Shown: positions 17 to 50,340, counted from the stretch's first letter. The stretch is 50,413 nucleotides of DNA from Candidatus Nomurabacteria bacterium (GCA_943356415.1 CALREW010000003.1:1-50413); one strand, 5' to 3'. Made by a program: numbers and translations. Notes: a model not told the origin generated them from the letters alone.

Positions 17-724
17 CTACGCAGCGAGCCGAGTCTCGTCAGGTCCTCGGTCAGTGTATCGAGGTTCGCGGATATCCATGCCGACACGAGGTGCCGGCGG
101 TTCTTCCTCGTCTTCCTCCTGCTCCTCCTCGTTGTCATTGTCTGCAGAGAGAGAACCTTCTTCAAATGAGTACCCCCCTTGAGCGCGTTGTGTCTGGGCT
201 ACGCGGGCTCTTGCTCCGGCCGCAGCTCCTCCAGCAGCACCCGCCCCTCTGGCCCCAAGCGCAAGCGTTGCGAGTCGTCCGACAGGCAAGAAACTGGCCG
301 CGGCCATAAGAAGATTTCCCGAGGACTTACCATTTGCGGCTCTGATAGAAAGCCAGGTTCCGACGGTAAGCGACGGCAGATAGTTAAGCATGGGGACGAA
401 TTCGGCAATACCAGCCATAGCCATACGCCGTGCGAAGGGGGCTCCTTTGAGCCAGAGCCATCCGGAAATAAAAATAAGTCCAAGCAAGCTGAGAAAGAGG
501 TCCGCAATAAATGAAAATCCCACACCTGCAAAAGCGGCAGCTGCTACAAGGGCTTGTCCAACAATGGGAATAAGACCCACCCATCCCACCGAGGCAGCAA
601 AAACCATAGGCATAAACGCGAGCATCATAGGCTGGAGTGCGTCGATGCACACGGCAAAAAACAACAGAGCCGCCATCTCGAGGCCGCCGATCTTTTTCCC
701 ACTTTCTTTTTGTTCCACCTCCAT
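17..724 (-). CDS. Hypothetical membrane protein at the end of the VirB4 cluster
   Basis: Several hydrophobic segments, motif AEFVPMLNYLPSLTVGTW, acidic low-complexity tail; 12 bp downstream of the VirB4-like gene. Confidence 0.75.
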   Translation of the reverse strand: MEVEQKESGKKIGGLEMAALLFFAVCIDALQPMMLAFMPMVFAASVGWVGLIPIVGQALVAAAAFAGVGFSFIADLFLSLLGLIFISGWLWLKGAPFARRMAMAGIAEFVPMLNYLPSLTVGTWLSIRAANGKSSGNLLMAAASFLPVGRLATLALGARGAGAAGGAAAGARARVAQTQRAQGGYSFEEGSLSADNDNEEEQEEDEEEPPAPRVGMDIREPRYTDRGPDETRLAA

Positions 725-736
725 ATAAGGACTTGC

Positions 737-2557
737 CTAGGTCGGCGTAGAATCTGCGCGGGCTTTTTTTATAGCCATAAGTTCTGATGGGTCAGAGGTG
801 ATGATTTGGTTTTCGGTATATGAAGCAACCGTTTTTATAGCTACGTGCTTAAGTCCTGCAAAGAATATACCTTCGCCGAGATCGGACTCGAGAAGCAAGT
901 ATTTTTCCTCGTCAGAGAGATTGAACGTCTTTTGCACAAGGTCAATTGATGTTGGTGATTGCTTAAGTAGCAGTTGGAGCGACGAGTTCGTTATCATCGG
1001 CATTCCGTAAGGCGAGTTGAGGAAGTCCGCGACGTCCTGCGTGATTGTCGCAAGACCGAGATAATATTTGCGTCCGCGCTTTGCCATACTGTAGAGGAAG
1101 CTCGCGGTGTCTTGGCTTTTCATCATGATCCACGCTTCGTCGATAACGAGAAGGCGCTTTTTCAATGTTTTGCGCACCGAGTTCCAGATATAGTGCGTGA
1201 CCAAATACATAGCGACTGGCTTCAGTTCGTCTTCCATGTCGCGGATGGAAAACACCGCGAGGCGTTTGTTGAGGTCGACGTTAGTCGGTTGGTTGAGGAA
1301 TCCAGACCACGTACCTTTGGTGTACTTGCTCAAGCGTTGCACCAACGACTCGCTTCCCTCCATGCCAGCTAGTACGAGCTCGAAGTCGGAGAGAAGCGGA
1401 GGCTCTATCTGCGAGAAATCAGAAGAGGGCGTGATGTCTTTGAGCGCGTACGTTTCTGTTATGGCACGGTCGATGATGGCGTCTTCCTCTGGGGTGAGAC
1501 CGCTCAACATGATGCGGAAGATGCCCACTAGTTCAACGATGTTTTTGCGCAATACGTCTGCAGCTGACTCGTCTTCTCGTGGAGTTGGGAGGTCAAACGG
1601 ATTTATGTGGTGTTCCGAGGTAAGCGAAATGTTGAAGTATCGCCCCCCTACCGCTTCAGCGAGGTTCTCGTATTCCCGCTCTGGGTCAATGACAAGGACT
1701 TCGGTATCGAACATCAGCGTACGCAGAATTTCGAGCTTGGTCGCATAGGACTTTCCGGAACCTGATTTTGCGAAGATAACCGAGTTGTAGTTTTCAAGCG
1801 AAAAGCGGTCGAAAAGCACAAGGGAGGCGTTGTGACGGTTGACGCCGTAGAGTATGCCGCGGTCGGAGGTGAGGTCGAAAGAAACAAAAGGAAATATTGA
1901 AGAGAGCGGCGTCGAGTTGAGTTTGCTGTGAACGTCGAGCTCGTCTTTTGCGATGGGAAGCGAACTGCGGAACCCTTGCTCTTGTTGGAAGAGTGCGGGT
2001 TTTACATAGACGAGCCGCGACTCAAGCATCGACTTTATTTCCGATTCGGTCTTGTCGAGCTCCTCGGCACTATCACCATAGATACTGATGTAGACACCCA
2101 CATCAAACATTTTCTCCTGTGCCTGTTGGAGGTCATCGCGGAGGTGTTCGATGTCGCGATAGGCGGTATCAAGCACCGGGTCGCGCACTAAGCCACGATC
2201 TTCGCGGGTGATAATCTGGCTCTGCACCTCCGCCACTTTCTTCTGGAACTTTTTCAACACCTCGGCGGTGTCGGCGGGGTGGATGAATATAGAAATATCG
2301 ATAACCTTATCGAGGTTGATGATAGGAGCAAACCAGCTGTCCGTAAGAAAACGTGGGTAGGACATCACAAAGAACGTTCGCGCTATTTTGTCACCGAGGT
2401 TAAGTTCGCGCGGCGATATTTTGAGTGCTGAGGGCGCGATGACGTCCTGAAGCTCCAATACCCCTTCGCGGTATATCTCTTCGGGAAGTATAGGAGAGAG
2501 CGCCGAGGGTTTCGTCCCCTCTTTGCCCTTGCCGGTTAGAAAATCAAGCAGTGCCAT
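737..2557 (-). CDS. VirB4/TraC-like type IV secretion ATPase
   Basis: Walker A AKSGSGKS, VIDPEREY, INPFD, Walker B LVIDEAW, RKY...ITQ motifs. Confidence 0.9.
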   Translation of the reverse strand: MALLDFLTGKGKEGTKPSALSPILPEEIYREGVLELQDVIAPSALKISPRELNLGDKIARTFFVMSYPRFLTDSWFAPIINLDKVIDISIFIHPADTAEVLKKFQKKVAEVQSQIITREDRGLVRDPVLDTAYRDIEHLRDDLQQAQEKMFDVGVYISIYGDSAEELDKTESEIKSMLESRLVYVKPALFQQEQGFRSSLPIAKDELDVHSKLNSTPLSSIFPFVSFDLTSDRGILYGVNRHNASLVLFDRFSLENYNSVIFAKSGSGKSYATKLEILRTLMFDTEVLVIDPEREYENLAEAVGGRYFNISLTSEHHINPFDLPTPREDESAADVLRKNIVELVGIFRIMLSGLTPEEDAIIDRAITETYALKDITPSSDFSQIEPPLLSDFELVLAGMEGSESLVQRLSKYTKGTWSGFLNQPTNVDLNKRLAVFSIRDMEDELKPVAMYLVTHYIWNSVRKTLKKRLLVIDEAWIMMKSQDTASFLYSMAKRGRKYYLGLATITQDVADFLNSPYGMPMITNSSLQLLLKQSPTSIDLVQKTFNLSDEEKYLLLESDLGEGIFFAGLKHVAIKTVASYTENQIITSDPSELMAIKKARADSTPT

Positions 2558-3191
2558 ATTGTTTTGCGAGTTGCATAGGCTTCTCTAGTTCGCCTGGGTT
2601 AAACAGTTTGTAGAAAAGCTCGATCACTTCCTCGGTGCCAAGTTCGGCCACACGCACGCCACTTCTTACTAAGCCTTGTTCGACAACCGAGATGCGTTGA
2701 GAGAGTTGCTGATGGTGTTCTTCGAAGTTGGCAGCTTCCTCCTCGCGCGTGCGATTTCCGCCGATCAGCCCTCCAAGAATACCCCCTTCCCTTTTGATAA
2801 CCGCAGGATCATACGGTATGACGACAAAGAAACTTTTTGCCATGATGTTGGCGCGGTCGGTGAATTCTCTGATGTAGTTTATGTAGGAGCGTATCTGAAC
2901 TTTCATCAAGTCGTCCAATTGCTCGGTATATCGGTCTTCAAGGAGTGCGAGATATGGGCGTATGTCGAGTTTGCGCGATTGGATAAAAAACTGAACAGTG
3001 AAATCGAGTGAGTTTAAGAATTGTTGGAACTGAGCGATGATTGCCGACTGCTCGTCGCCTGATTTAAGTGCAAAATTTACGGAACTCGCCAAAAGAATAG
3101 CGCGCAATCCGCCGTCCTTAAGGACAATGGTCCCGTTGCGTACTTCTTTGATGGGGACGAACCCCTGAGTTGCTTGTGCGTTTGTTGCCAT
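2544..3191 (-). CDS. VirB4 N-terminal-like (TraC-related) accessory protein
   Basis: VNFALKSGDEQ...FLNSLDF..Q motif typical of the gene upstream of CPR VirB4; overlaps the VirB4 start. Confidence 0.75.
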   Translation of the reverse strand: MATNAQATQGFVPIKEVRNGTIVLKDGGLRAILLASSVNFALKSGDEQSAIIAQFQQFLNSLDFTVQFFIQSRKLDIRPYLALLEDRYTEQLDDLMKVQIRSYINYIREFTDRANIMAKSFFVVIPYDPAVIKREGGILGGLIGGNRTREEEAANFEEHHQQLSQRISVVEQGLVRSGVRVAELGTEEVIELFYKLFNPGELEKPMQLAKQYGTA

Positions 3192-3697: not shown

Positions 3698-4330
3698 CTA
3701 CTCGATGGCTTCTCGATACGGGTCATTCGAGTACCCAGGTCCTTTGGCTGGGGCAATACCAACAGTTACGGTTGTCCCTGGCGTTGCCTGGGGAGTGGAG
3801 AGCGTTTTCTCGACGGCTTCAAGGGGTTTTGGGGCCACTGCTACGGGAGTTGCAGGCACTGTGGGGGGCGCTTTTGGGGTTTCAACAAAAACGGTACTTG
3901 GTGCGGGAGGAACTGGGATTGGTGCCTGTTTGGGGATGACATCTTGCAAAGGCGGTCGAGCCGCCTCTGTCTTTGCGGGAGGAGGAGGTGTTGCCGCCTT
4001 TGGGCGTCCGCGTTCCTCGCTCATGCGGCGCATTGCAGTGCGTATGTGTGCGAATATTTCGTTTCCAACATCCGCAGCAATTTTTTGAGAGTCTTCGAGC
4101 GGTATTTTCGCTTGTGCAACCAAGTTGCGCACAAACGCACCTTCGTTGTCGAAGCCGAGCATGACAAGCATCACCTCCCGCTCCATAACGGTCTGTTGGT
4201 CGATGCGCAGCTTGTACCGCTGCCCGATGGCGCGCATCTTTACCGTTGCTTGCGCCTCCCCTATCGCCTGCTTTACATAGTCAGGGAGTTCGGCGATACG
4301 CTTGGCTATTATCTGCTCGGGAGTTTCCAT
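3698..4330 (-). CDS. Hypothetical protein with Pro-rich linker
   Basis: Helical N-terminal domain, Pro/Ala/Thr-rich linker, C-terminal DPYRE motif often seen in Parcubacteria. Confidence 0.75.
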   Translation of the reverse strand: METPEQIIAKRIAELPDYVKQAIGEAQATVKMRAIGQRYKLRIDQQTVMEREVMLVMLGFDNEGAFVRNLVAQAKIPLEDSQKIAADVGNEIFAHIRTAMRRMSEERGRPKAATPPPPAKTEAARPPLQDVIPKQAPIPVPPAPSTVFVETPKAPPTVPATPVAVAPKPLEAVEKTLSTPQATPGTTVTVGIAPAKGPGYSNDPYREAIE

Positions 4331-28678: not shown

Positions 28679-29605
28679 ATGACCCTCGACGATCTCCGAA
28701 GCGAATTTCTTGAACACCTTGAGATAGAGAAAGGCCGTTCTGTTAAGACGGTCGAGAACTACGACCGCTATTTGCGACGCTTTATTGCCTACTCGAAAGC
28801 AAAGGCGCCCAAAGATATCACCGAGCGTTCGGTGCGCGACTTCCGTATGTGGCTTAACCGCCAGAGTGCGCACCCGGGTTCTAAAAAGGCGAACGAGCAA
28901 GAAACGCTCAAACGCAAAACACAAAACTACTACCTGATTGCACTGCGCGCGTTCTTAAAGTTTCTCGCGAAGCGCGGGCACACCTCGCTTAGTCCTGAGA
29001 AAATTGATTTAGCCAAAGTTGGTGACCGTCATCTTGACCTAATTTCTTCACAAGAGCTCTCGCGTCTTATGGCTGCGCCGCAAGGAAGTGGCATGCAAGC
29101 GCTACGAGACCGCGCCATCATGGAATTATTTTTCTCGACCGGCTTGCGCGTGTCGGAACTCTGCGCACTTGATCGCGATATCGACCTTGATCGCGAAGAA
29201 ATGTCCGTGCGCGGCAAGGGAGATAAGGTGCGTGTCGTATTTTTATCCTCTGACGCAAAAAAGTCAGTCAAAGCGTATCTCGACAAGCGGGGTGATATCG
29301 AGGAAGCCCTTTTTATCTCAACAGGAAAAGGTTTTTCTAAAAAAGATGGCGGCCGGCTCACTCCCCGTTCAGTTGAACGCATCATCAAACGCTATGCAGT
29401 AAAGGCTGGCATTACCAAAAAAGTGACACCGCATGTTATTCGCCACAGTTTTGCCACTGACCTACTTGAGAACGGTGCAGACCTCCGCTCAGTACAAGCA
29501 CTCCTCGGTCACGCCAATATCACAACCACCCAGGTCTATACGCACGTAACTGACAAACACCTCCGCGACGTGCACAAGGCCTTTCATGGGAAAAGACGAA
29601 AGTAG
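28679..29605 (+). CDS. XerC/XerD-like tyrosine recombinase
   Basis: TGLRVSEL, GKGDKVR, PHVIRHSFAT.LL.NGADLR.VQ.LLGH..ITTTQVY. Confidence 0.92.
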   Translation: MTLDDLRSEFLEHLEIEKGRSVKTVENYDRYLRRFIAYSKAKAPKDITERSVRDFRMWLNRQSAHPGSKKANEQETLKRKTQNYYLIALRAFLKFLAKRGHTSLSPEKIDLAKVGDRHLDLISSQELSRLMAAPQGSGMQALRDRAIMELFFSTGLRVSELCALDRDIDLDREEMSVRGKGDKVRVVFLSSDAKKSVKAYLDKRGDIEEALFISTGKGFSKKDGGRLTPRSVERIIKRYAVKAGITKKVTPHVIRHSFATDLLENGADLRSVQALLGHANITTTQVYTHVTDKHLRDVHKAFHGKRRK

Positions 29606-42795: not shown

Positions 42796-44268
42796 TTATT
42801 CGACGTGATATTTCTTGCGCAGTTCCTTTACGCTTGCCTCTTCCTCTTCTTCTTTACGCTCCTTCCCTGCTTCTCCGAGTTTTTTTAGTTCTTCATCGGA
42901 CAATTTTGATAACTCCCCTACCCTAGCCCGCAAATGTTCGTCCGTATTTTTCTCTGGGTTGTCTAAAACCTCCTCGAGCAAGGCGTGGAGCATGTATCCG
43001 ATGCGCGGTCCTGCCTTCTCCCCCATTTGCATCAGATCGTTTCCATCAATTTTGAGCATTCCCACCGTGAGTGGCGCGCGGAGCGCTTCTTCTATCATCG
43101 ATTGGTACTTGCGCAGGCGAAATGGTTGCTCTTTTGGTCGGCCAGTACCGATACGATCACAAATGCGGAGGTTCACCAGGTCCCAAATATTTTCCTGGCC
43201 GACATTTCGGACGATACGGCGTACAGCAGAGAGCGTTACTTTCTCTGGATCAGAAAAGAACATGTGCCAGCGCACGAGGTTTGAAACTTTATCGACTGTC
43301 TCCTTCGGAAAACGTAGATCCTGCAAGGCTTTTTTGGTCACTCGCGAACCAACGACATCGTGCCCATAAAAGGTCCAATCGTTCTTCTCCTCGGAGCGGC
43401 GGCGGGTCTCAGGCTTGGCTACATCATGGAAAAGTGCCGAGAGGCGTATGTCGAATGACCAACCTTTGTCTGCTGCGTGCTGAAGGCTCCTCAAGTTATG
43501 CTCCCAAACGTCGTAGCTATGTGCTTGGTTTTGATCAATACCCATTCCCCTTTCTAAGTCTGGCGCGATAAAGCGAAGTGCCCCGATGGCTTGGGCAAGC
43601 TGCACGGCTTTCATGGGCTTGCTTGAATTGAGCATGCGCACAAACTCATCACGGATGCGCTCTTTGGATATTTTTCCTAGTCGTCCGACTTCAGCAATCA
43701 TCGCATCGCGCGTTTCGGGCTCTATTGAAAAGTCGAGCTCTGCCGAGAGACGTATGGCGCGCAGTATGCGTAATGCATCTTCTGCAAAACGTTCTCTCGC
43801 CTGCCCTACCGCTCGCAACACGCCAGCTTTCAGATCCGCCTGCCCCCCGTAGTTGTCTACGAGTACATCTTTTTCTGGACTATAGGCAAATGCGTTCACC
43901 GTAAAGTCTCGACGCTTAAGATCGTCATCGAGTTTCTGGCTCCAGATTACCTCGTCCGGCCGGCGTGAGTCGGTGTACTTCCCTTCCACGCGGTACGGGG
44001 TTACTTCAATGACTTTGAGTCGCTCGTCTGCAGCCTCGTCCCACACAACACCCACGGTCCCAAATTCGTTCGTATAGAAGGTATGCGGAAATATTCGCTG
44101 GATGTCCTCCGGCGTTGCGTCGGTAGTAACGTCCCAGTCGTTCGGCTCCTTCCCTATTACAAGATCGCGGATACAACCACCAACCACGTAGGCTTCGAAG
44201 CCTGCGTCCGAGAGACCAGATGTCACTTGGAGCACTTCTTTCGGTATTGAATCAGGCCGTATTTTCAC
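42796..44268 (-). CDS. cca: CCA tRNA nucleotidyltransferase with HD domain
   Basis: VGGCIRD...DWD, RRDFTVNA, EDALRILRA, LFHDVAKP. Confidence 0.9.
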   Translation of the reverse strand: MKIRPDSIPKEVLQVTSGLSDAGFEAYVVGGCIRDLVIGKEPNDWDVTTDATPEDIQRIFPHTFYTNEFGTVGVVWDEAADERLKVIEVTPYRVEGKYTDSRRPDEVIWSQKLDDDLKRRDFTVNAFAYSPEKDVLVDNYGGQADLKAGVLRAVGQARERFAEDALRILRAIRLSAELDFSIEPETRDAMIAEVGRLGKISKERIRDEFVRMLNSSKPMKAVQLAQAIGALRFIAPDLERGMGIDQNQAHSYDVWEHNLRSLQHAADKGWSFDIRLSALFHDVAKPETRRRSEEKNDWTFYGHDVVGSRVTKKALQDLRFPKETVDKVSNLVRWHMFFSDPEKVTLSAVRRIVRNVGQENIWDLVNLRICDRIGTGRPKEQPFRLRKYQSMIEEALRAPLTVGMLKIDGNDLMQMGEKAGPRIGYMLHALLEEVLDNPEKNTDEHLRARVGELSKLSDEELKKLGEAGKERKEEEEEASVKELRKKYHVE

Positions 44269-44340
44269 ACAACCATCCTAACAGACATTCCTAAGTGAGC
44301 GCTTTGTTATAGCCCTCCCCTGACGTACCATGGGCCCATT

Positions 44341-44412
44341 GCTCCCGTGGTGAAATGGATATCACGACTGGCTTCGAACCAGTTATTCCAGGTTCGAGTC
44401 CTGGCGGGAGCA
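44341..44412 (+). tRNA. tRNA-Arg(TCG)
   Basis: Cloverleaf; anticodon arm actgg-cTTCGaa-ccagt; T-loop TTCGAGT; CCA not encoded. Confidence 0.93.
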
Positions 44413-44524
44413 CCTAGACAGAAATATCTGCCCTGCGGCAGATTTTCTGCGCAGGTTCTGACCTGAGCTAAGACCCTCTTGGGGATTAGACGCTAGTCTG
44501 CTATTGTTTTGTCGTCTAAGTTCA

Positions 44525-44574
44525 GCGGATATCGGTTTGGCCTGAGGAATACCTCTAGGCTGTGTTAGAACGGC
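44525..44574 (+). repeat. Degenerate copy of the tRNA-Gly(GCC) 5' half with hairpin insert
   Basis: gcggatatcggtt-[tggcctgaggaatacctctaggct]-gtgttagaacggc versus tRNA gcggatatggtt-ta-gtggtaggacggc. Confidence 0.7.
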
Positions 44575-44608
44575 CGCAGGTTCAGTAAAGGTCATGAGTT
44601 CCTAGAAT

Positions 44609-44655
44609 GCCGGATAGGTTCTCGCTTGGGCAAGCCCTGAGCTGTGGTAGGACGG
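44609..44655 (+). repeat. Degenerate copy of the tRNA-Gly(GCC) 5' half with hairpin insert
   Basis: gccggataggtt-[ctcgcttgggcaagccctgagct]-gtggtaggacgg. Confidence 0.75.
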
Positions 44656-44669
44656 TCAAAGTTTGAAAT

Positions 44670-44740
44670 GCGGATATGGTTTAGTGGTAGGACGGCTCCT
44701 TGCCAAGGAGCAGGCGGGAGTTCGATTCTCCCTATCCGCA
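44670..44740 (+). tRNA. tRNA-Gly(GCC)
   Basis: Acceptor gcggata/tatccgc; anticodon arm gctcc-ttGCCaa-ggagc; T-loop TTCGATT. Confidence 0.93.
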
Positions 44741-44916
44741 CAAGCACAAAAATGAGCCCTTCGAAGGGCCATTTTTGTTTGTGCGGATAGAGGAAGCCGA
44801 CTGCTCGGCTTCCGTGGAGAATCGAACAGCTGAGCTATGTTACCCTCAGGTAACAGGCGAGCTGGTGCCCAGACCAAGGTGAGCGACGGCGAACCTTGAG
44901 TCGCGGGCGATCTCCC
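44741..44916. mobile_element. tRNA-anchored fold-back mini element
   Basis: Inverted copy of the tRNA 3' end (44780-90 and 44816-27), consecutive hairpins, T-arm-like remnant cgatctccc at 44908-16. Confidence 0.5.
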
Positions 44917-45026
44917 GGCATCTCTCCTTGTTTCCCGTGTAACAGGCAAAATAGACAACAAGACGCAAAAGACATCCAGGTTTTATGAATATTGGGTGTT
45001 GAAAAATAAGGGTTTTACTCAAAATC

Positions 45027-45055
45027 TGTGGATAACATTGGGGACATGTGCATAA
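45027..45055. promoter_or_regulatory. DnaA boxes in an AT-rich intergenic region
   Basis: TGTGGATAA (45027-35, consensus) and TGTGCATAA (45047-55, one mismatch). Confidence 0.5.
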
Positions 45056-45151
45056 AAGACACGTCCGATAGGCCTTTAGAATATGGTTCGATTTCAAAAA
45101 TATGGCCTAAAATAAGGTCTTTTTGACTTTTTAGGTCTAAGAAAGTAAAAA

Positions 45152-45395
45152 CGTTTCACGTGATAGGAATTATATGAAGTTTCCCGTGAAAACAACTGAA
45201 AAGCGCCTAACAGGCAACCTAGGAGAGGCTTTAGTTGCTAAATACCTTACAAAACAAGGATTTATAGTACTTTCACGTAACTATCTCCTTGCGTATGGGG
45301 AGTTGGACCTCGTAGCTAAAAAGGCAGGAGTTATCCACTTTGTTGAGGTTAAGTCTGTTACATGTGAAATACCCCCAGATGTTTCCCGTGAAATG
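45152..45395. promoter_or_regulatory. Cluster of parS-like sites
   Basis: Four degenerate matches to TGTTNCACGTGAAACA at 45152, 45178, 45356 and 45380. Confidence 0.6.
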
Positions 45396-45590
45396 AGTAT
45401 TATTAAAAACCCTGCTGAAAAGATAGATGAGCACAAATTGCGCAAAATAGGGAAGGCCGCTCAGACATATCTAGTCAACATGGATCTTTTGGACATGGAC
45501 TGGCAGGTAGATGCGGCACTTGTATGGATTGACCGTGCCTCTAAACGAGCAAAGGTCGAGTTGCTTGAAAACGTGAGTGCGGGCATATAA
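45174..45590 (+). CDS. yraN: YraN family (UPF0102) nuclease
   Basis: G.LGE..A.YL...GF..L.RNY...GELDLVA......FVEVK. Confidence 0.9.
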   Translation: MKFPVKTTEKRLTGNLGEALVAKYLTKQGFIVLSRNYLLAYGELDLVAKKAGVIHFVEVKSVTCEIPPDVSREMSIIKNPAEKIDEHKLRKIGKAAQTYLVNMDLLDMDWQVDAALVWIDRASKRAKVELLENVSAGI

Positions 45591-45636
45591 AGGACATTGA
45601 TGTCCTTTATGGTAGGGTAGGGAGGTTCGAAAAATT

Positions 45637-45707
45637 CGGGGCGTAGTATATCGGTAGTATGCGTGCTTTGGGAGCACGAGGGCCGGGTTCGATTCCCGGC
45701 GCCCCGA
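45637..45707 (+). tRNA. tRNA-Pro(TGG)
   Basis: Acceptor cggggcg/cgccccg; anticodon arm cgtgc-ttTGGga-gcacg; T-loop TTCGATT. Confidence 0.93.
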
Positions 45708-45715
45708 CAGATTTA

Positions 45716-45741
45716 GCAAAAAGCGCTTCGGCGCTTTTTGC
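45716..45741 (+). terminator. Terminator after tRNA-Pro
   Basis: gcaaaaagcgc-ttcg-gcgctttttgc. Confidence 0.8.
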
Positions 45742-45781
45742 GTTTCGGTGTGGGAAATCCACAAAACTTTTTGAATCGTAG

Positions 45782-45810
45782 TTGACAGGGTTTTCAAACC
45801 GCACTACATT
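45782..45810 (+). promoter_or_regulatory. Sigma70-type promoter
   Basis: TTGACA-17 bp-TACATT. Confidence 0.7.
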
Positions 45811-45816
45811 CGCTAT

Positions 45817-45944
45817 ATGGAACGCCGTTCCTACATCGTCACCAAGTTTTGGCTCCTCCTTACCGAGGGGGCCTCTTGTGGCATGTAGGAATTCGTTCTA
45901 AAGAACTCCTAGACCACAAAGGCCCCCGAAAGGGGGCCTTGGTC
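45817..45944 (+). promoter_or_regulatory. Attenuator-like leader with 23-aa leader ORF (45817-45888)
   Basis: Mutually exclusive 1:2, 2:3 and 3:4 pairings; ORF MERRSYIVTKFWLLLTEGASCGM starts at the predicted +1. Confidence 0.55.
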
Positions 45945-45953
45945 GTTTAGGGG

Positions 45954-47012
45954 ATGTCTCGTCCCTTGTCAGTCACGTTCAAAATGGAGGAACGGAAGTT
46001 GAAAGCACGATCCCAAGCGGGGCAACAGACCCCGGCACATGTGTTGGCTGCGGCTTGCCTGGCAAAAGCCAGTGCGGTCACCCTTCCCAACGGCTGGAAA
46101 TTTCGCCACTCGCAGAGGGCGGAAGAGCTGCAGCAGGACACGGTGGATTTCCTGACCGGCGTGATGGAGCGGTGGAGAACCGCTTCTCCCACAGAAGAGA
46201 CCTGGGCTCGACGTCACCTGGGGGCCCCGTCCATCTTTGGCCGGGTCAAATTCATCATCGAACAAGATGGCACTGTTCGGGTCATCAGCATCGATGGTGC
46301 GCCCTATATCGGGCTCAGCGCCAAGTACGATCCCGTCTACCGCGGTGCCCTCGAGTACTACAAGGCTGGCGGAGGCCAATGGCCGAACTTCGTTTCTGTC
46401 ACCGGCCCAAACGTCACGAGCGACGACTCCCTATGGGTCAAGACCGTCACGCTGAGCGAAGCCCGCAAAATGGCCGGGCAGCTCTATCTCGTTCGCTTCA
46501 ACCCCAAGACGAATCGCGCGAGGGATGAGGCGGACCTCGTCCATCAATCTGTCGTGCCGGTCGCCCACGTCAACAATCGCTCCTACGGCACGAAGCTCGA
46601 TCTCCTCGAGCCCTTCAAGTGGAGCGATGACGAAGACCCCATCAAGGGCCCGCACGCCATCAAGGGCAGTTGCGGTCGTGGGGGACACTCGGTGTTCTTC
46701 TACGGTCTTGATGCGGGACAGCGGCCGGCGGGGTGCAAGAGTGGCGACTTCGTCGGCGAGGATCGCCTGAAGGCCTTCCTGGACCGCAACGGCGGCAGCG
46801 CGTTCAAGCAGCGCATGTACGGTCCTATGATGCTGTCGCACTGTCCGGGTATGTGCGCGGTCTTCTGCCTGGACTTCGCGTTCGACCGCAAGGCCGGCGC
46901 GTTCGGTAGCTACCGTGCTATCGGTGGCACCTGGCGGGCTCAGCGCTCCATGGTCGTCGTTCCGGGCGAGAAGACCATCATCGGCCCGTTGCGACTTCCG
47001 GGCCGTTCCTGA
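45954..47012 (+). CDS. Hypothetical protein, possibly a degenerate ATP-grasp fold
   Basis: 352-aa GC-rich ORF with AGGGG RBS; weak resemblance to CPR ATP-grasp-like proteins (N.SYG, Q...PM, GG.W.A...GP). Confidence 0.65.
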   Translation: MSRPLSVTFKMEERKLKARSQAGQQTPAHVLAAACLAKASAVTLPNGWKFRHSQRAEELQQDTVDFLTGVMERWRTASPTEETWARRHLGAPSIFGRVKFIIEQDGTVRVISIDGAPYIGLSAKYDPVYRGALEYYKAGGGQWPNFVSVTGPNVTSDDSLWVKTVTLSEARKMAGQLYLVRFNPKTNRARDEADLVHQSVVPVAHVNNRSYGTKLDLLEPFKWSDDEDPIKGPHAIKGSCGRGGHSVFFYGLDAGQRPAGCKSGDFVGEDRLKAFLDRNGGSAFKQRMYGPMMLSHCPGMCAVFCLDFAFDRKAGAFGSYRAIGGTWRAQRSMVVVPGEKTIIGPLRLPGRS

Positions 47013-47041
47013 CCTAGTCCCGGCTTCGGCCGGCACGGGAA

Positions 47042-47070
47042 GCACCGCGCGTACTACGCGCGGTGCCTTT
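47042..47070. terminator. Terminator between convergent genes
   Basis: gcaccgcgcgta-c-tacgcgcggtgc-cttt. Confidence 0.65.
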
Positions 47071-47090
47071 CGTTTCAGTCAGGAGATTTT

Positions 47091-48293
47091 TTACTGCTCC
47101 AGCACTTCGACCAGTGTTTGTTTGAGTGTGGGTACTACGTTGAGATTAAAGAGAAGTGCTTTCTGCGCGATGTCGCCCGTGAGAAGCGCCGCAAGACCTG
47201 AACCCGTTTGCTCAGTAATACTTTTGTTTATGTGACTGACGGTTATCGCACGTAAATCGCGCTCTGCAGTCGTGGCGCCTTGTGTTGCGGTAGCGATGAG
47301 GCCAATGAGCGCGGCATCTGACTCACGAACCACTGCGCCGCCGGAGGAACCTTTTTGCGAAAGTATCGTACCACCAGCAGAGAAGAGATCGGCACCACCG
47401 CCTTCTTTGAAAGTAAAGATTTGGCCAATAGTGGTTCGCGCTGAAGAGATAAAGAGGTTGGTTTGAATCGTCGCGCCATCAAAGAATCCAGCGGGATAGG
47501 CAGCGAGCACCACGGGCACATTTTCAATATTTTCTGCTACCGACATAGAAACGTGCGGGAAAGAAGAGGGAAGTGTATTTGAACCGCTCGGCCCAGTGAT
47601 GCGCAAAAAGGCGAAGTCATTTTCTCCCGTGCCGGTTGGATTTTCAGCAATTATTTTATTAGCATTGTCGGTCATCCACTGTGACGGAAAGTACAGTAGT
47701 TCAGCCTTATACATGGCGCGCGCAGGGGAGCCGCTGCGTATGACGCAGTCGACGTTTCCCGCAGTGGGGTAGTCGCGAAGCAAGAAGAACTGTGCGACGT
47801 GCGCGTTGGTGAGAACGATGCCTCGAGAGTCAATCATGATGCCGCTGCCAGAGATCGGACGCAGGGGACCGCCGCCTGAAGTGACGCAGAGAATATTTAC
47901 GAGGGCACTCCGAACCTTTGTATTAACGTCACCAACAGTCTCTGCTGGTGTTGGTGTTGTTGGAGGGGTTGGTGTGGCGACCACAGGAGTTGAAGGCTCC
48001 GGGTTCTTTGGAGGGAGTGGGGTAGGGGATTCTGGTTTTTTTACAGGAGGAGTAGCCGGGACATCTTTTGGCGCCACTGCAACAGATTTTTTTTCTTCGG
48101 GAGGTTTCGATGTATTGATTGCGTAGGGTGCTGCTTTAGGAAGTGTGACTGAAAGCGTTGTCGGAAAATGTAAAAATGGGGCAGGGGAGACGTGCGGCAG
48201 TTGTGGGTACGAAAATGTGGCGCCTGAAGCAATAATTGCGAGCCCTGTTGCTATCTGGCCGAAGACTGAGGTGATGATGTCGAGAAAAGACAT
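47091..48293 (-). CDS. Trypsin-like (S1) serine protease with Pro-rich stalk
   Basis: GSG, LTNAHVA (His), DFAFL (Asp), GSSGG (Ser); no PDZ domain. Confidence 0.88.
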   Translation of the reverse strand: MSFLDIITSVFGQIATGLAIIASGATFSYPQLPHVSPAPFLHFPTTLSVTLPKAAPYAINTSKPPEEKKSVAVAPKDVPATPPVKKPESPTPLPPKNPEPSTPVVATPTPPTTPTPAETVGDVNTKVRSALVNILCVTSGGGPLRPISGSGIMIDSRGIVLTNAHVAQFFLLRDYPTAGNVDCVIRSGSPARAMYKAELLYFPSQWMTDNANKIIAENPTGTGENDFAFLRITGPSGSNTLPSSFPHVSMSVAENIENVPVVLAAYPAGFFDGATIQTNLFISSARTTIGQIFTFKEGGGADLFSAGGTILSQKGSSGGAVVRESDAALIGLIATATQGATTAERDLRAITVSHINKSITEQTGSGLAALLTGDIAQKALLFNLNVVPTLKQTLVEVLEQ

Positions 48294-48393
48294 ATATCGA
48301 GTATACCTGCGAGAAGGTTTTCGACGAGGTTATCTCAAAGGCATCCAGTATGCTAGGTTGTAGGGCGACGAGCGGGAACTCGTCGTTCAAAAA

Positions 48394-48447
48394 GCGGGAT
48401 TAGCCCGACATGCGTAGCAGTCGAGGTCCCGACCGCAGCGTCGGGAT
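48394..48447 (+). repeat. tRNA-Gly(TCC) 5' decamer followed by a REP-like hairpin element
   Basis: gcgggattag, then cccgac...tcccgac-cgcagc-gtcggga. Confidence 0.55.
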
Positions 48448-48457
48448 TCTCAGAAAA

Positions 48458-48546
48458 GCGGGATTAGTTCTCACCTGGGTAAACCCTAGGTTATGTTAGA
48501 ACATCTAGACAATGGGCCTAGAGTAATAACGAGGACACAGTCCGCA
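48458..48546 (+). pseudogene. tRNA-Gly(TCC)-derived tRNA-like copy with D-loop hairpin insert
   Basis: gcgggattagtt-[ctcacctgggtaaaccctaggtt]-atgttagaacatc, then stem tctag/ctaga and 3' strand agtccgca; no T arm. Confidence 0.6.
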
Positions 48547-48550
48547 AAAT

Positions 48551-48624
48551 GCGGGATTAGTTTAATGGTAGAACATCAGTTTTCCAAACTGAGAGCACCG
48601 GTCCGATTCCGGTATCCCGCACCA
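48551..48624 (+). tRNA. tRNA-Gly(TCC)
   Basis: Acceptor gcgggat/atcccgc plus ACCA; anticodon arm tcagt-ttTCCaa-actga; T-loop TCCGATT. Confidence 0.92.
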
Positions 48625-50146
48625 AAATCTGACTTTCAGAAAATTGACCGACTTTTTCATTGGCGGCGCACAGCGCCGCCCATGCGTTTTGTCCCGACAA
48701 ATCCTCTCCGCTCGGCGCGGTGAGCTGCGCCTCGCGGTTGGCCAAGACGAGGTTCGAGCCAAAGATTTCTTTGGCAGCAACCTTTTTGCTAAAAAGGTTG
48801 CTCTCCCGCGCGATTTTAGGCAGATTCTCTGCCTCTTTTATCCATTCTGTCATCGGTTCGAGCCAGCCAGTCCGCTTTTGTTCAATCCGCGCCGTTTGCT
48901 CTTCCAGCGACTTCTTTTCGGAAAGGAGTTTTGCTTTCTCGGTGCGGTAGATTTCTCGCTCAATATCTTGTTCTAAATAGCCATCGAGAAGTCGCTGGAG
49001 CTTAATTTGAATGGCGCGGATTCTCTCTCCGGATTCCTGAACAAAAGCGGTTGAGGATTGGGCGGCTTCGGTTTTCTCTTTTTCAAGCATAGCGGTTAGT
49101 TCCGCCGCCCAATCCGGTCTCAAAGAAAATTTTTGTAGTAGAGATGATAACTGGCGATCTAGTTCCTCTTGGCGAATACAAGGTTCGGGACATTTCAACT
49201 TTGATTTCTTGGTGCAGTGATAATAGACATATTCGTGAACATTTCCATTTTTCTGTTTCTTCACCTTGTATTCGCCAGTTATCATCATTCCGCATGAGGC
49301 ACAGGAAAGGAGTCCGCAAAAAGGTTGTGGTTCATTTTTTTGCTTGTGGTGCGGACGGCCTCGTTGCTTCAAAACTTCCTGCGCCTTGTCCCAAATTTTC
49401 TTTGAGACCACTGGCTGGTGCTTGCCCTCGTGGATTTCGCCACCATAGCGAAAGTGTCCGTAGTAGAAGGGATTGGAAAGGATAAAAGTAATTCTGTCTC
49501 GGTGGAGTCGCTTGCCGTTTTTTGAATGAATACCGGATTGCGCCAAAAAGTTTGAAATGTCCTCAAGGCGACTTCCATTTTTCGCGTACAGCTCAAACGC
49601 CTTGCGAATGAGTGAGGCGCGCTTCTTGTCCACGATAACAGTTTTCGTTCGCACATCATTGATATATCCGATAGGCGCAAGGCAGGGATATTCGCCGCGC
49701 CTCACTTTTTGGCGCAATCCACGCTTCGTATTTTCGGCAAGCGAATCCACATAGTATTTGCTTTGCCCAAAGGCGATATTGAGCATGAACTTTCCTTGTG
49801 AGGTATTTTCACACCAGAACTGCGGAAATTTCAGGTCCGCAAGTCCACCGCCGTCAAGCAGGTAGATAATCTTTCCACCGTCAACAGAATTGCGCGCCAA
49901 TCTGTCGGGGTGCCAAGCAAGGATAGCGTTTGCATCGCCTCGCTCTATGCGCGAAATCATTTTGTTGAAAATCGGGCGGCCGGTAATTTTGGCGGATTGC
50001 TTTTCAATAAATTCCTCGGCGATGTGCAAACCCTCTTGCCTGGCAAAGGCGCGCAATTCTGTGATCTGCGCTTCAATAGATAAAACCTGCTTGTCCTCCA
50101 CATCGGTGGACTTGCGGGCGTAGAGAAAATATTTGTAGTTGTTCAT
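48557..50146 (-). CDS. Large serine recombinase (resolvase, recombinase and Zn-ribbon domains)
   Basis: YARKS catalytic Ser, SIEAQ, SAK..GRP.F, DRLARN, NPFYYG, CASCG...YYHC...C, coiled coil; the last codons run antisense through tRNA-Gly; alternative start at 50152. Confidence 0.93.
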   Translation of the reverse strand: MNNYKYFLYARKSTDVEDKQVLSIEAQITELRAFARQEGLHIAEEFIEKQSAKITGRPIFNKMISRIERGDANAILAWHPDRLARNSVDGGKIIYLLDGGGLADLKFPQFWCENTSQGKFMLNIAFGQSKYYVDSLAENTKRGLRQKVRRGEYPCLAPIGYINDVRTKTVIVDKKRASLIRKAFELYAKNGSRLEDISNFLAQSGIHSKNGKRLHRDRITFILSNPFYYGHFRYGGEIHEGKHQPVVSKKIWDKAQEVLKQRGRPHHKQKNEPQPFCGLLSCASCGMMITGEYKVKKQKNGNVHEYVYYHCTKKSKLKCPEPCIRQEELDRQLSSLLQKFSLRPDWAAELTAMLEKEKTEAAQSSTAFVQESGERIRAIQIKLQRLLDGYLEQDIEREIYRTEKAKLLSEKKSLEEQTARIEQKRTGWLEPMTEWIKEAENLPKIARESNLFSKKVAAKEIFGSNLVLANREAQLTAPSGEDLSGQNAWAALCAANEKVGQFSESQILVRDTGIGPVLSVWKTDVLPLN

Positions 50147-50340
50147 GCTCATACAATTATTGGGCAAAGCAAATCCGAGACAGAATTAAAATCGCGCGGG
50201 AGGCGAACCTCGTCTTGGCCAACCGCGAGGCGCGGCTCACCGCGCCGAGCGGAGAGGATTTGTCGGGACAAAACGCATGGGCGGCGCTGTGCGCCGCCAA
50301 TGAAAAAGTCGGTCAATTTTCTGAAAGTCAGATTTTGGTG
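48620..50340. mobile_element. Recombinase cassette bounded by 137-bp inverted repeats at the tRNA-Gly 3' end
   Basis: 48620-48756 and 50204-50340 are reverse complements at 136 of 137 positions. Confidence 0.8.

Follow-up and report, generated by a model that had tools for sequence, protein, structure and literature searches.

Hairpin-split copies of tRNA 5' halves in the leaders of tRNA-Gly genes of a Candidatus Nomurabacteria bacterium

Split 5' copies upstream of two tRNA-Gly genes

We describe here two tRNA-Gly genes of a Candidatus Nomurabacteria bacterium (GCA_943356415.1), an ultra-small member of the Candidate Phyla Radiation (CPR) or Patescibacteria, that are preceded by three partial copies of the tRNA 5' end, each split by a small hairpin. 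The stretch of DNA analyzed (the window) is contig C3 (CALREW010000003.1:1-50413) of 50,413 nucleotides (nt), and belongs to a 7-contig genome (G000) of 802,766 bp with 44 tRNA genes. Two of the copies, units 1 and 2, lie upstream of tRNA-Gly(GCC) and one, unit 3, upstream of tRNA-Gly(TCC) (Table 1). On rereading the sequence they were found exactly where the original prediction, a note made from the DNA alone, had placed them, and as it had also claimed, the tRNA-Arg and tRNA-Pro genes of the window have no such copies. The third tRNA-Gly gene of the genome (CCC) is on contig C2 (15343-15414, minus strand), and its 5' copy is likewise interrupted.

The three units share a common layout. A few leader-like bases (AAT or AAAA) precede nt 1; the tRNA 5' end then continues as far as the D-stem, a hairpin sits at the D-loop start, the remainder of the D-arm follows, and all three units end at tRNA nt 28 ± 1. 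Their flanks are 75-93% identical to the neighboring tRNA, and the prediction that each unit matches its own neighbor is borne out, the identities to the neighbor being higher in all three. Unit 1 agrees with tRNA-Gly(GCC) at 14/15 positions on the left and 12/16 on the right (10/15 and 11/16 for TCC), unit 2 at 12/15 and 14/15 (10/15 and 10/15 for TCC), and unit 3 agrees with tRNA-Gly(TCC) at 13/15 and 13/16 positions (11/15 and 10/16 for GCC). Unit 1 is a mosaic, with TTAGAAC as in unit 3 and tRNA-Gly(TCC), yet GGC as in tRNA-Gly(GCC), and the acceptor strand of both units 1 and 2 contains indels. The gaps after the units are 32, 14 and 43 nt long and contain no open reading frame (ORF). We rejected the idea that the units are whole decayed tRNA copies because the sequences following them do not exceed shuffles in similarity to the 3' parts of the tRNAs (scores as high are reached by 227, 54, and 158 of 500 shuffles for units 1, 2, and 3), and the units are thus half-copies. 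The tetranucleotide CTAG is unusually frequent in and around the leader units, at 44415-44608 and 48486-48525 (seven by eye).

The insert at the D-loop start of each unit is 22-24 nt long and holds a small palindrome of one family; the hairpin itself (referred to here as type D) is 19-21 nt, and reads GCCT-GAGG-AATA-CCTC-T-AGGC in unit 1, GCTT-GGG-CAAG-CCC-T-GAGC in unit 2, and ACCT-GGG-TAAA-CCC-T-AGGT in unit 3. In a three-way alignment of the units (A2) the hairpin helix comprises seven pairs with 100% of cells paired and three pairs altered on both sides, in agreement with the prediction of a homologous hairpin of one architecture with compensatory differences, and the D-stem of the units (GTTC:GAAC) forms five pairs with 93% of cells paired. 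These hairpin pairing values are reached by 24 of 500 column shuffles, and slid controls pair 24-72%; the covariation rests on three sequences, has little statistical power, and is suggestive only. The hairpins are identical to each other at only 12/21, 13/21, and 12/19 columns of A2, and are thus about 40% different. A regular expression describing the architecture (a 4-bp outer stem, a GGG or GAGG inner stem, a 4-nt loop, and a bulged T) matches three sites in the genome, which are the three units, but shuffled genomes yield 2.6 sites on average, so that the signal lies in the placement of the hairpins and not in their count. The type-D hairpin is not a genome-wide repetitive extragenic palindrome (REP), as all three genome copies sit in the units. 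No clear target-site duplication was found around the type-D insert.

A further copy lies upstream of unit 3. The original prediction had listed a bare 10-mer at 48394, but this 10-mer, GCGGGATTAG (48394-48403), which corresponds to tRNA nt 1-10, is followed directly by a 43-nt double hairpin, CCCGAC..GTCGAGGTCCCGAC..GTCGGGA (48404-48446), and then by TTCTCA, which corresponds to nt 11-16 of unit 3, unlike the real tRNA. Because TTCTCA matches unit 3 and not the tRNA, we interpret this stretch as a copy of the start of unit 3 that is split after nt 10; its RNA fold has a z-score of -2.35. The same double hairpin splits the 5' copies of tRNA-Gly(CCC) and tRNA-Thr(CGT) in this genome. The Gly(CCC) and Gly(TCC) double hairpins have an unusually long first loop that is absent from the 17 other copies listed, and they are each other's closest relatives.

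An exact pattern for the double hairpin matches 11 of 201 order-level genomes, and a reversed-pattern control gave no matches. Among the 19 distinct copies listed, nine lie in a tRNA leader, where they directly follow a copied nt 1-10/11 segment of the downstream tRNA (Met, Val, Arg, Phe, Lys, Gly, and Thr), and are followed by nt 11-16 of the same tRNA; the other ten lie outside tRNA leaders. An AGC left flank is present in 16 of the 19 copies listed, a single C may be duplicated, and the copies of any one genome resemble each other. The double hairpin thus looks like a small, mobile family.

A census of the genome found same-strand upstream 5' copies at 4/44 tRNA genes, comprising all three tRNA-Gly genes and tRNA-Thr(CGT), which is the single case among the 41 other tRNAs. 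The enrichment at tRNA-Gly has a hypergeometric probability of 3e-4, with the events not being independent, and the control orientations gave 1, 0, and 0 matches.

Table 1. Coordinates of the tRNA-Gly genes, their split 5' copies, and neighboring features (window positions unless contig C2 is given).
Feature	Position	Strand	Remarks
Putative extended -10 box, TGCTATTGT	44499..44507	+	17 nt before unit 1; predicted
Unit 1, copy of tRNA-Gly(GCC) nt 1 to ~28 with hairpin	44525..44576	+	56.8 bits with model R1; left flank 44525-44539, hairpin 44540-44560, right flank 44561-44576
Unit 2, second copy of tRNA-Gly(GCC), nt 1 to ~27, with hairpin	44609..44657	+	61.8 bits with model R1; left flank 44609-44623, hairpin 44624-44642, right flank 44643-44657
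tRNA-Gly(GCC)	44670..44741	+	ARAGORN and Rfam, 68.8 bits
Nested interrupted copy	48394..48457	+	tRNA nt 1-10, double hairpin, TTCTCA, GAAAA
Unit 3, copy of tRNA-Gly(TCC) nt 1 to ~28 with hairpin	48458..48507	+	65 bits with model R1; left flank 48458-48472, hairpin 48473-48491, right flank 48492-48507
Unit 3 tail	48508..48550	+	ends in AGTCCGCA (48539-48546), which can pair with GCGGG of the unit
tRNA-Gly(TCC), CCA encoded	48551..48624	+	ARAGORN and Rfam, 70 bits
Leader copy of tRNA-Gly(CCC) nt 1-10 and 11-16, split by double hairpin	C2, 15415-15480		
Leader copy of tRNA-Thr(CGT) nt 1-10 and 11-16, split by double hairpin	C2, 96024-96090		
CCA-adding enzyme	42796-44268	-	
YraN/UPF0102 protein	45174-45590		
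352-aa ORF, no family	45954-47012	+	GC-rich
Trypsin-like protease	47091-48293	-	
Large serine recombinase	48557-50167	-	Resolvase, Recombinase, and zinc-ribbon domains

Leader position, strain variation, and relatives

The units are probably transcribed as the leader of the pre-tRNA, as judged from the position of a putative promoter element. A TGCTATAGT box lies 10-20 nt before the +1 position of tRNA-Gly(GCC) in 7 of 19 syntenic relatives, with close variants in others (by reading), and the similar spacing of the box before unit 1 suggests that unit 1 occupies the former start of the gene. A strict sigma-70 scan found no promoter at the leader of the units; TAGAAT directly before unit 2 is a possible second start.

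Folding of the leaders gave mixed results. Single units, with the folds of units 1 and 2 started at 44526 and 44610, are no better than shuffles (z = -1.2, +1.4, and -1.6 for units 1, 2, and 3), nor are the Gly(GCC) leader folds (z = -0.17 and -0.66). The 93-nt segment from unit 3 to the tRNA (48458-48550) has a z-score of -4.22 and a closing stem of GCGGG/UCCGC, and the Gly(TCC) precursor is much more structured than shuffles (z = -5.37). In the minimum free energy (MFE) folds of both precursors the upstream pseudo-5' strand is paired with the tRNA 3' strand. Any duplicated strand would be expected to pair in this way; the pairing is not evidence of function.

Contigs of a strain about 98% identical to this one are present in two freshwater sequencing runs (X3 and X4) from two independent studies. 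This sister strain has 12 differences in the 555 nt at 44000-44554, all within the upstream gene, and one contig per run joins 44554 to 44641 with 'TT' between them, from which it follows that the sister strain has one hybrid unit composed of the left part of unit 1 and the right part of unit 2. The net loss of 84 nt is exactly the period from unit 1 to unit 2 (44609-44525). Because units 1 and 2 differ strongly, the two-unit state is not a recent duplication of the hybrid, and it appears simpler that unequal recombination deleted the 84 nt in the sister strain. From our reading of the junction, the hybrid unit seems to have a poorer outer stem, with CTAG changed to TT. At the second locus, positions 48395-48454 with the double-hairpin copy are replaced in the sister strain by 97 letters that do not align, and there are no differences over 48455-48598, which includes unit 3. 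The sister-strain contigs match up to the 3' end of tRNA-Gly(TCC) at 48624 and none was aligned beyond it; those of X3 and X4 give no cover of 46004-46838 and 48676-49000.

Nineteen relatives share the Arg(TCG)-Gly(GCC)-Pro(TGG) cluster in synteny, and in none of them (0/19) is tRNA-Gly(GCC) preceded by a 5' copy. The Arg-Gly spacer is 255 nt here compared with 26 to ~340 nt in relatives with a same-strand tRNA-Arg directly upstream, and 26-79 nt at 8 of 12 such loci. The original prediction had proposed a covariance search of relatives, and a model (R1) built from the three units with 12 pairs finds the three units alone in their own genome (next match E=0.5). At E<=0.01 it found no unit in 150 other order-level genomes, nor in 40 other family-level genomes, a set that takes in the unpublished genome G007 and gave one weak match (E=0.7). 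A hairpin-plus-D-arm pattern had no matches in a collection of genome contigs, and the pattern 'GCGGGATTAGTT, 15-45 nt, TAGAACA' had 32 matches in genome contigs, mostly coding-like and none beside a tRNA (by reading). Metagenome contigs were searched through the neighboring protease, and contained no strain-level locus (best identity 54%).

Split 5' copies are not confined to this genome. Among 72 tRNAs in 51 metagenome loci there are two clear 5' copies (L061 and L069) and several weak ones. In L061 a tRNA-Pro (~3960-4090, minus strand) is accompanied by nt 1-14, a 75-nt insert, and nt 11-31, with TATA on both sides, and in L069 a tRNA-Gly(TCC) (~2507-2610, minus strand) by nt 1-17 followed by a GC-rich hairpin. 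In L013 a tRNA-Pro (~473-525, minus strand) has a decayed 5' copy without a hairpin. The 5' copies of all three of these loci are promoter-proximal, and those of L013 and L069 likewise lie at the promoter-proximal ancestral start. At L008 an ORF ending just before tRNA-Pro (2599) shows by eye the CxxC...H motif that HNH nucleases typically have, and 10 nt within this ORF match the 5' end of tRNA-Pro.

The 3' sides of the tRNA genes show a separate pattern. Downstream of 14/44 tRNAs there is an antisense copy of the tRNA's own 3' part, and downstream of 11/44 a sense copy, and these belong to structured trailer modules whose motif, GAGCGACGGCGA, is present ten times in the genome, seven of them directly behind a tRNA. 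The stretch behind tRNA-Gly(GCC) (44742-44930), with its trailer at 44781-44930, is one member of this family. A long hairpin (44732-44790) comes first, with the tRNA 3' end in its stem; next are nt 51-72 of tRNA-Gly(GCC) in antisense, interrupted by the hairpin AAGCCGACTGCTCGGCTT, and a structured core with GAGCGACGGCGA. Similar trailers are present behind tRNA-Gly(GCC) at L003, L014, and L016.

Of the neighboring protein-coding genes, that for the YraN/UPF0102 protein seems to follow tRNA-Gly(GCC) in several relatives too, from a reading of the synteny alignment. The 352-aa ORF has no Pfam, NCBIfam, or PHROGs family, has a GC content of 0.60-0.67 compared with 0.51 genome-wide, is bracketed by strong hairpins at 45908-45951 and 47035-47073, and is without cover in the sister-strain contigs; it is possibly strain-specific foreign DNA.

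Origin of the units

The explanation that we prefer, and to which we give about even credence, is that the units are non-essential, lineage-private pseudo-5'-halves of tRNA-Gly genes within the gene leaders, and are recombination-prone relics. For this locus taken alone, a neutral relic is the likeliest reading. A partial duplication of the 5' end of the gene would have left a spare 5' half beside the old promoter, and this spare half may have been the only site at which a small palindromic insert with a preference for D-arm sequence could land without harm. Split repeats would be lost less readily, such that split copies persist. Ectopic recombination at the 5' sequence that the three tRNA-Gly genes have in common would then have spread the cassette among them, with gene conversion later drawing the unit flanks towards the neighboring gene. 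Exchange among the tRNA-Gly genes coupled with local conversion is suggested by the local character of the flanks, the ~40% divergence of the hairpins, the mosaic structure of unit 1, and the double hairpins of two tRNA-Gly genes being closest to each other. The units presumably would be transcribed with the pre-tRNA leader, be lost upon RNase P cleavage at the true 5' end, and have no product of their own. The original prediction had offered as one of its readings scars that an unknown element left on the 5' side of the tRNA, and this comes nearer the mark in that the units appear to be DNA-level relics and their hairpins resemble inserted palindromes. There is no element with an integrase between copy and gene, where the gaps are 14-43 nt. 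Its other reading, a functional leader or decoy, fails by the refuting condition that the prediction had itself set, as the motif is absent upstream of tRNAs in the relatives searched, and unit number varies between strains that are ~98% identical.

Several points weigh against our preferred explanation. All six same-strand 5' copies in the genome are hairpin-split and none is unsplit, which points to a single event that couples duplication and insertion rather than to two independent ones, and the precise end of all type-D copies at nt 28 ± 1 suggests a site-specific process. The full pairing of the hairpin and its three compensatory pairs, despite the ~40% divergence, fit selection on hairpin structure. 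Template switching within quasi-palindromes could yield compensatory pairs without selection. The type-D hairpin has no other copies anywhere searched, and for this reason its mobility is argued by analogy with the double hairpin. The persistence of split copies by survivorship is inferred, and transcription in the leader with removal by RNase P is assumed. Lastly, the genome collection contains no other species of this genus, and 'private' thus means absent at family distance.

A site-specific process acting on the 5' half of tRNA genes, either a small element without proteins of its own that is mobilized in trans, like a cis-mobilizable element (CIME) or a miniature inverted-repeat transposable element (MITE), or repair following cleavage by a nuclease directed at tRNA genes, could instead have left the units as its footprints, each event displacing the old 5' half upstream and installing a new one, the hairpin being either a palindromic filler of the break or the inverted ends of the element, collapsed together. 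We retain this as a real but clearly minority possibility because the splitting of every 5' copy and the exact end points are not explained by two independent steps. The end points are constant not only in the three type-D copies but in the double-hairpin copies, which end at nt 10/11 in seven tRNA species and seven genomes; the promoter-nearest copy is at the ancestral start here as in L013 and L069; the same plan recurs with other inserts in other lineages (L061 tRNA-Pro and L069 tRNA-Gly); and the end of the HNH-like ORF, assigned by eye, is just upstream of tRNA-Pro at L008. However, the copy-to-gene distance is only 14-43 nt, neither an integrase nor a nuclease gene is present between the units or next to them, the only tyrosine recombinase of the genome (324 aa, 29042-29560) is distant from them, the visible element boundary of the large serine recombinases is the tRNA 3' end, the piece after the insert always matches the local tRNA and is hence not travelling cargo, and L013 has a decayed 5' copy that lacks a hairpin. 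A more far-reaching version, which we consider unlikely, is that a protein-less or trans-acting system rewrites tRNA-gene 5' ends in CPR bacteria and left the split copies as its footprints. If so, a fresh 5' half would be installed while the old one stays upstream, sealed by a palindrome, and the hairpin would mark a cut or entry point in the D-arm, which would account for all copies being split, for the exact end points, and for the recurrence of the plan with unrelated inserts. In a milder variant the leader copies may be kept because they buffer the folding or processing of tRNA-Gly.

A role for the units as a cis-acting leader, in which the pseudo-5' strand vies with the true 5' strand for the 3' acceptor strand, or draws off a tRNA-Gly-binding factor as a decoy, so that tRNA-Gly maturation is tuned and the hairpin determines the balance, strikes us as quite improbable. 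The MFE folds, the z-score of the Gly(TCC) precursor, and the compensatory changes in the hairpin would agree with such a role, as would the D-stem, which is kept or improved in the units, and the presence of some 5' copy at all three tRNA-Gly genes. Nonetheless, units are absent from all relatives searched, near-identical strains have either one or two of them with a hybrid whose outer stem seems poorer, the acceptor-strand indels in units 1 and 2 weaken the proposed pairing, and neither the Gly(GCC) leader nor any single unit folds better than shuffles. It is highly improbable that unit 3 and its tail (48458-48546) form a small tRNA-like RNA gene of their own that lacks a T-arm but has an acceptor-like stem, an anticodon-like arm, and a D-arm enlarged by a further hairpin. 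The z-score of -4.22, the GCGGG/UCCGC closure, and a 5-bp TCTAG/CTAGA stem at the place of the anticodon stem all speak for it, and unit 3 is identical in the sister strain, but identity in a 98% identical strain carries no information. Moreover, ARAGORN makes no tRNA call on the units, an Rfam scan of 43500-49500 at E<=1 returned only weak chance matches beyond the four tRNAs, the tail is no more similar to tRNA than shuffles are, units 1 and 2 lack such a closing stem, and no relatives were found in the 150 order-level and 40 family-level genomes.

Two enzymatic sources were considered. The genome has eight large serine recombinases, and by their coordinates seven of these reach or converge on a tRNA gene; the frame of the one in the window passes antisense through tRNA-Gly(TCC) and ends at tRNA nt 7-9. 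Two of the four tRNAs with 5' copies have such a recombinase (P ~0.11), there is none within 1.5 kb of the double-hairpin loci from other genomes, and the sister strain carries an identical unit 3, yet its contigs give no cover of the neighboring recombinase element. The association with recombinases that the original prediction had raised thus did not hold up for the units, and the large serine recombinases are rejected as their source. A recombinase site in the D-loop is rejected too, as the DNA held in common with the sister strain reaches the tRNA 3' end. An origin by reverse transcription was set aside: there is one reverse-transcriptase gene in the genome (C2 89016-89612, minus strand, in a 455-aa open frame), but 4-5 bases of the leader (AAAA) are part of the TCC copies.

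Comparison with known systems

Duplications arising by integration usually copy the 3' part of a tRNA. The units are like att-site duplications in that a direct repeat of a tRNA segment lies beside an intact gene, and in that the repeat extends to an end of the gene, covering a few leader bases and nt 1 to about nt 28, although this is the 5' end rather than the usual 3' end. They differ in that att-site duplications flank a kb-sized element that carries an integrase, whereas here no recombinase lies between copy and gene and each copy is split by a hairpin. The serine recombinase of the window is on the other side of its tRNA gene, beyond the 3' end. Partial tRNA gene copies resulting from mobile-element integration are well described, with tRNA genes acting as hot spots (10.1101/2022.07.05.498093).

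The archaeal-type introns and split tRNAs have complete exons on both sides, whereas the unit copies stop at nt 28, and these introns have a bulge-helix-bulge with two 3-nt bulges where the unit hairpin has one bulged T (by eye). Riboswitch- and T-box-like leaders are conserved with covariation, in contrast to the units, which are found at 0/19 syntenic loci and in 0/150 and 0/40 genomes and have no Rfam family. We found no paper describing hairpin-split 5' tRNA copies in leaders.

The distal repeats of Escherichia coli tyrT, which encode the RtT RNA, are tandem units beside a tRNA gene, each with a piece of the tRNA, and presumably stem from unequal recombination and are presumably co-transcribed with the tRNA. 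The tyrT/RtT units are downstream and copy the 3' end, whereas those described here are upstream, copy nt 1-28, and carry an inserted hairpin. The trailer at 44781-44930 is of the general tyrT/RtT kind in being downstream, and is separate from the units; there is no RtT match among the Rfam matches at E<=1 in 43500-49500. The hairpins resemble MITEs, REPs, and the Rickettsia palindromic elements, which are also short, gene-less hairpin inserts. The double-hairpin family resembles them further in being multi-copy within genomes, present in several genera, and having a preferred flank, but about half of its copies occupy a single, fixed site in a tRNA 5' copy; and whereas such elements are many and dispersed, the type-D hairpin has three copies, all in 5' copies of tRNA-Gly.

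Units of this kind can pass for regulatory leaders or pseudo-tRNAs, a caution for annotation. The combined observations point to a recurring and undescribed way of remodelling the 5' side of tRNA genes in the tiny genomes of CPR bacteria. tRNA genes are the most familiar landing sites of mobile DNA, and the known footprints there are 3'-end repeats around large elements; to these the present locus adds one-versus-two-unit variation at the level of strains, together with a second hairpin family that in several genera interrupts spare 5' copies at precisely the same point of the D-stem.

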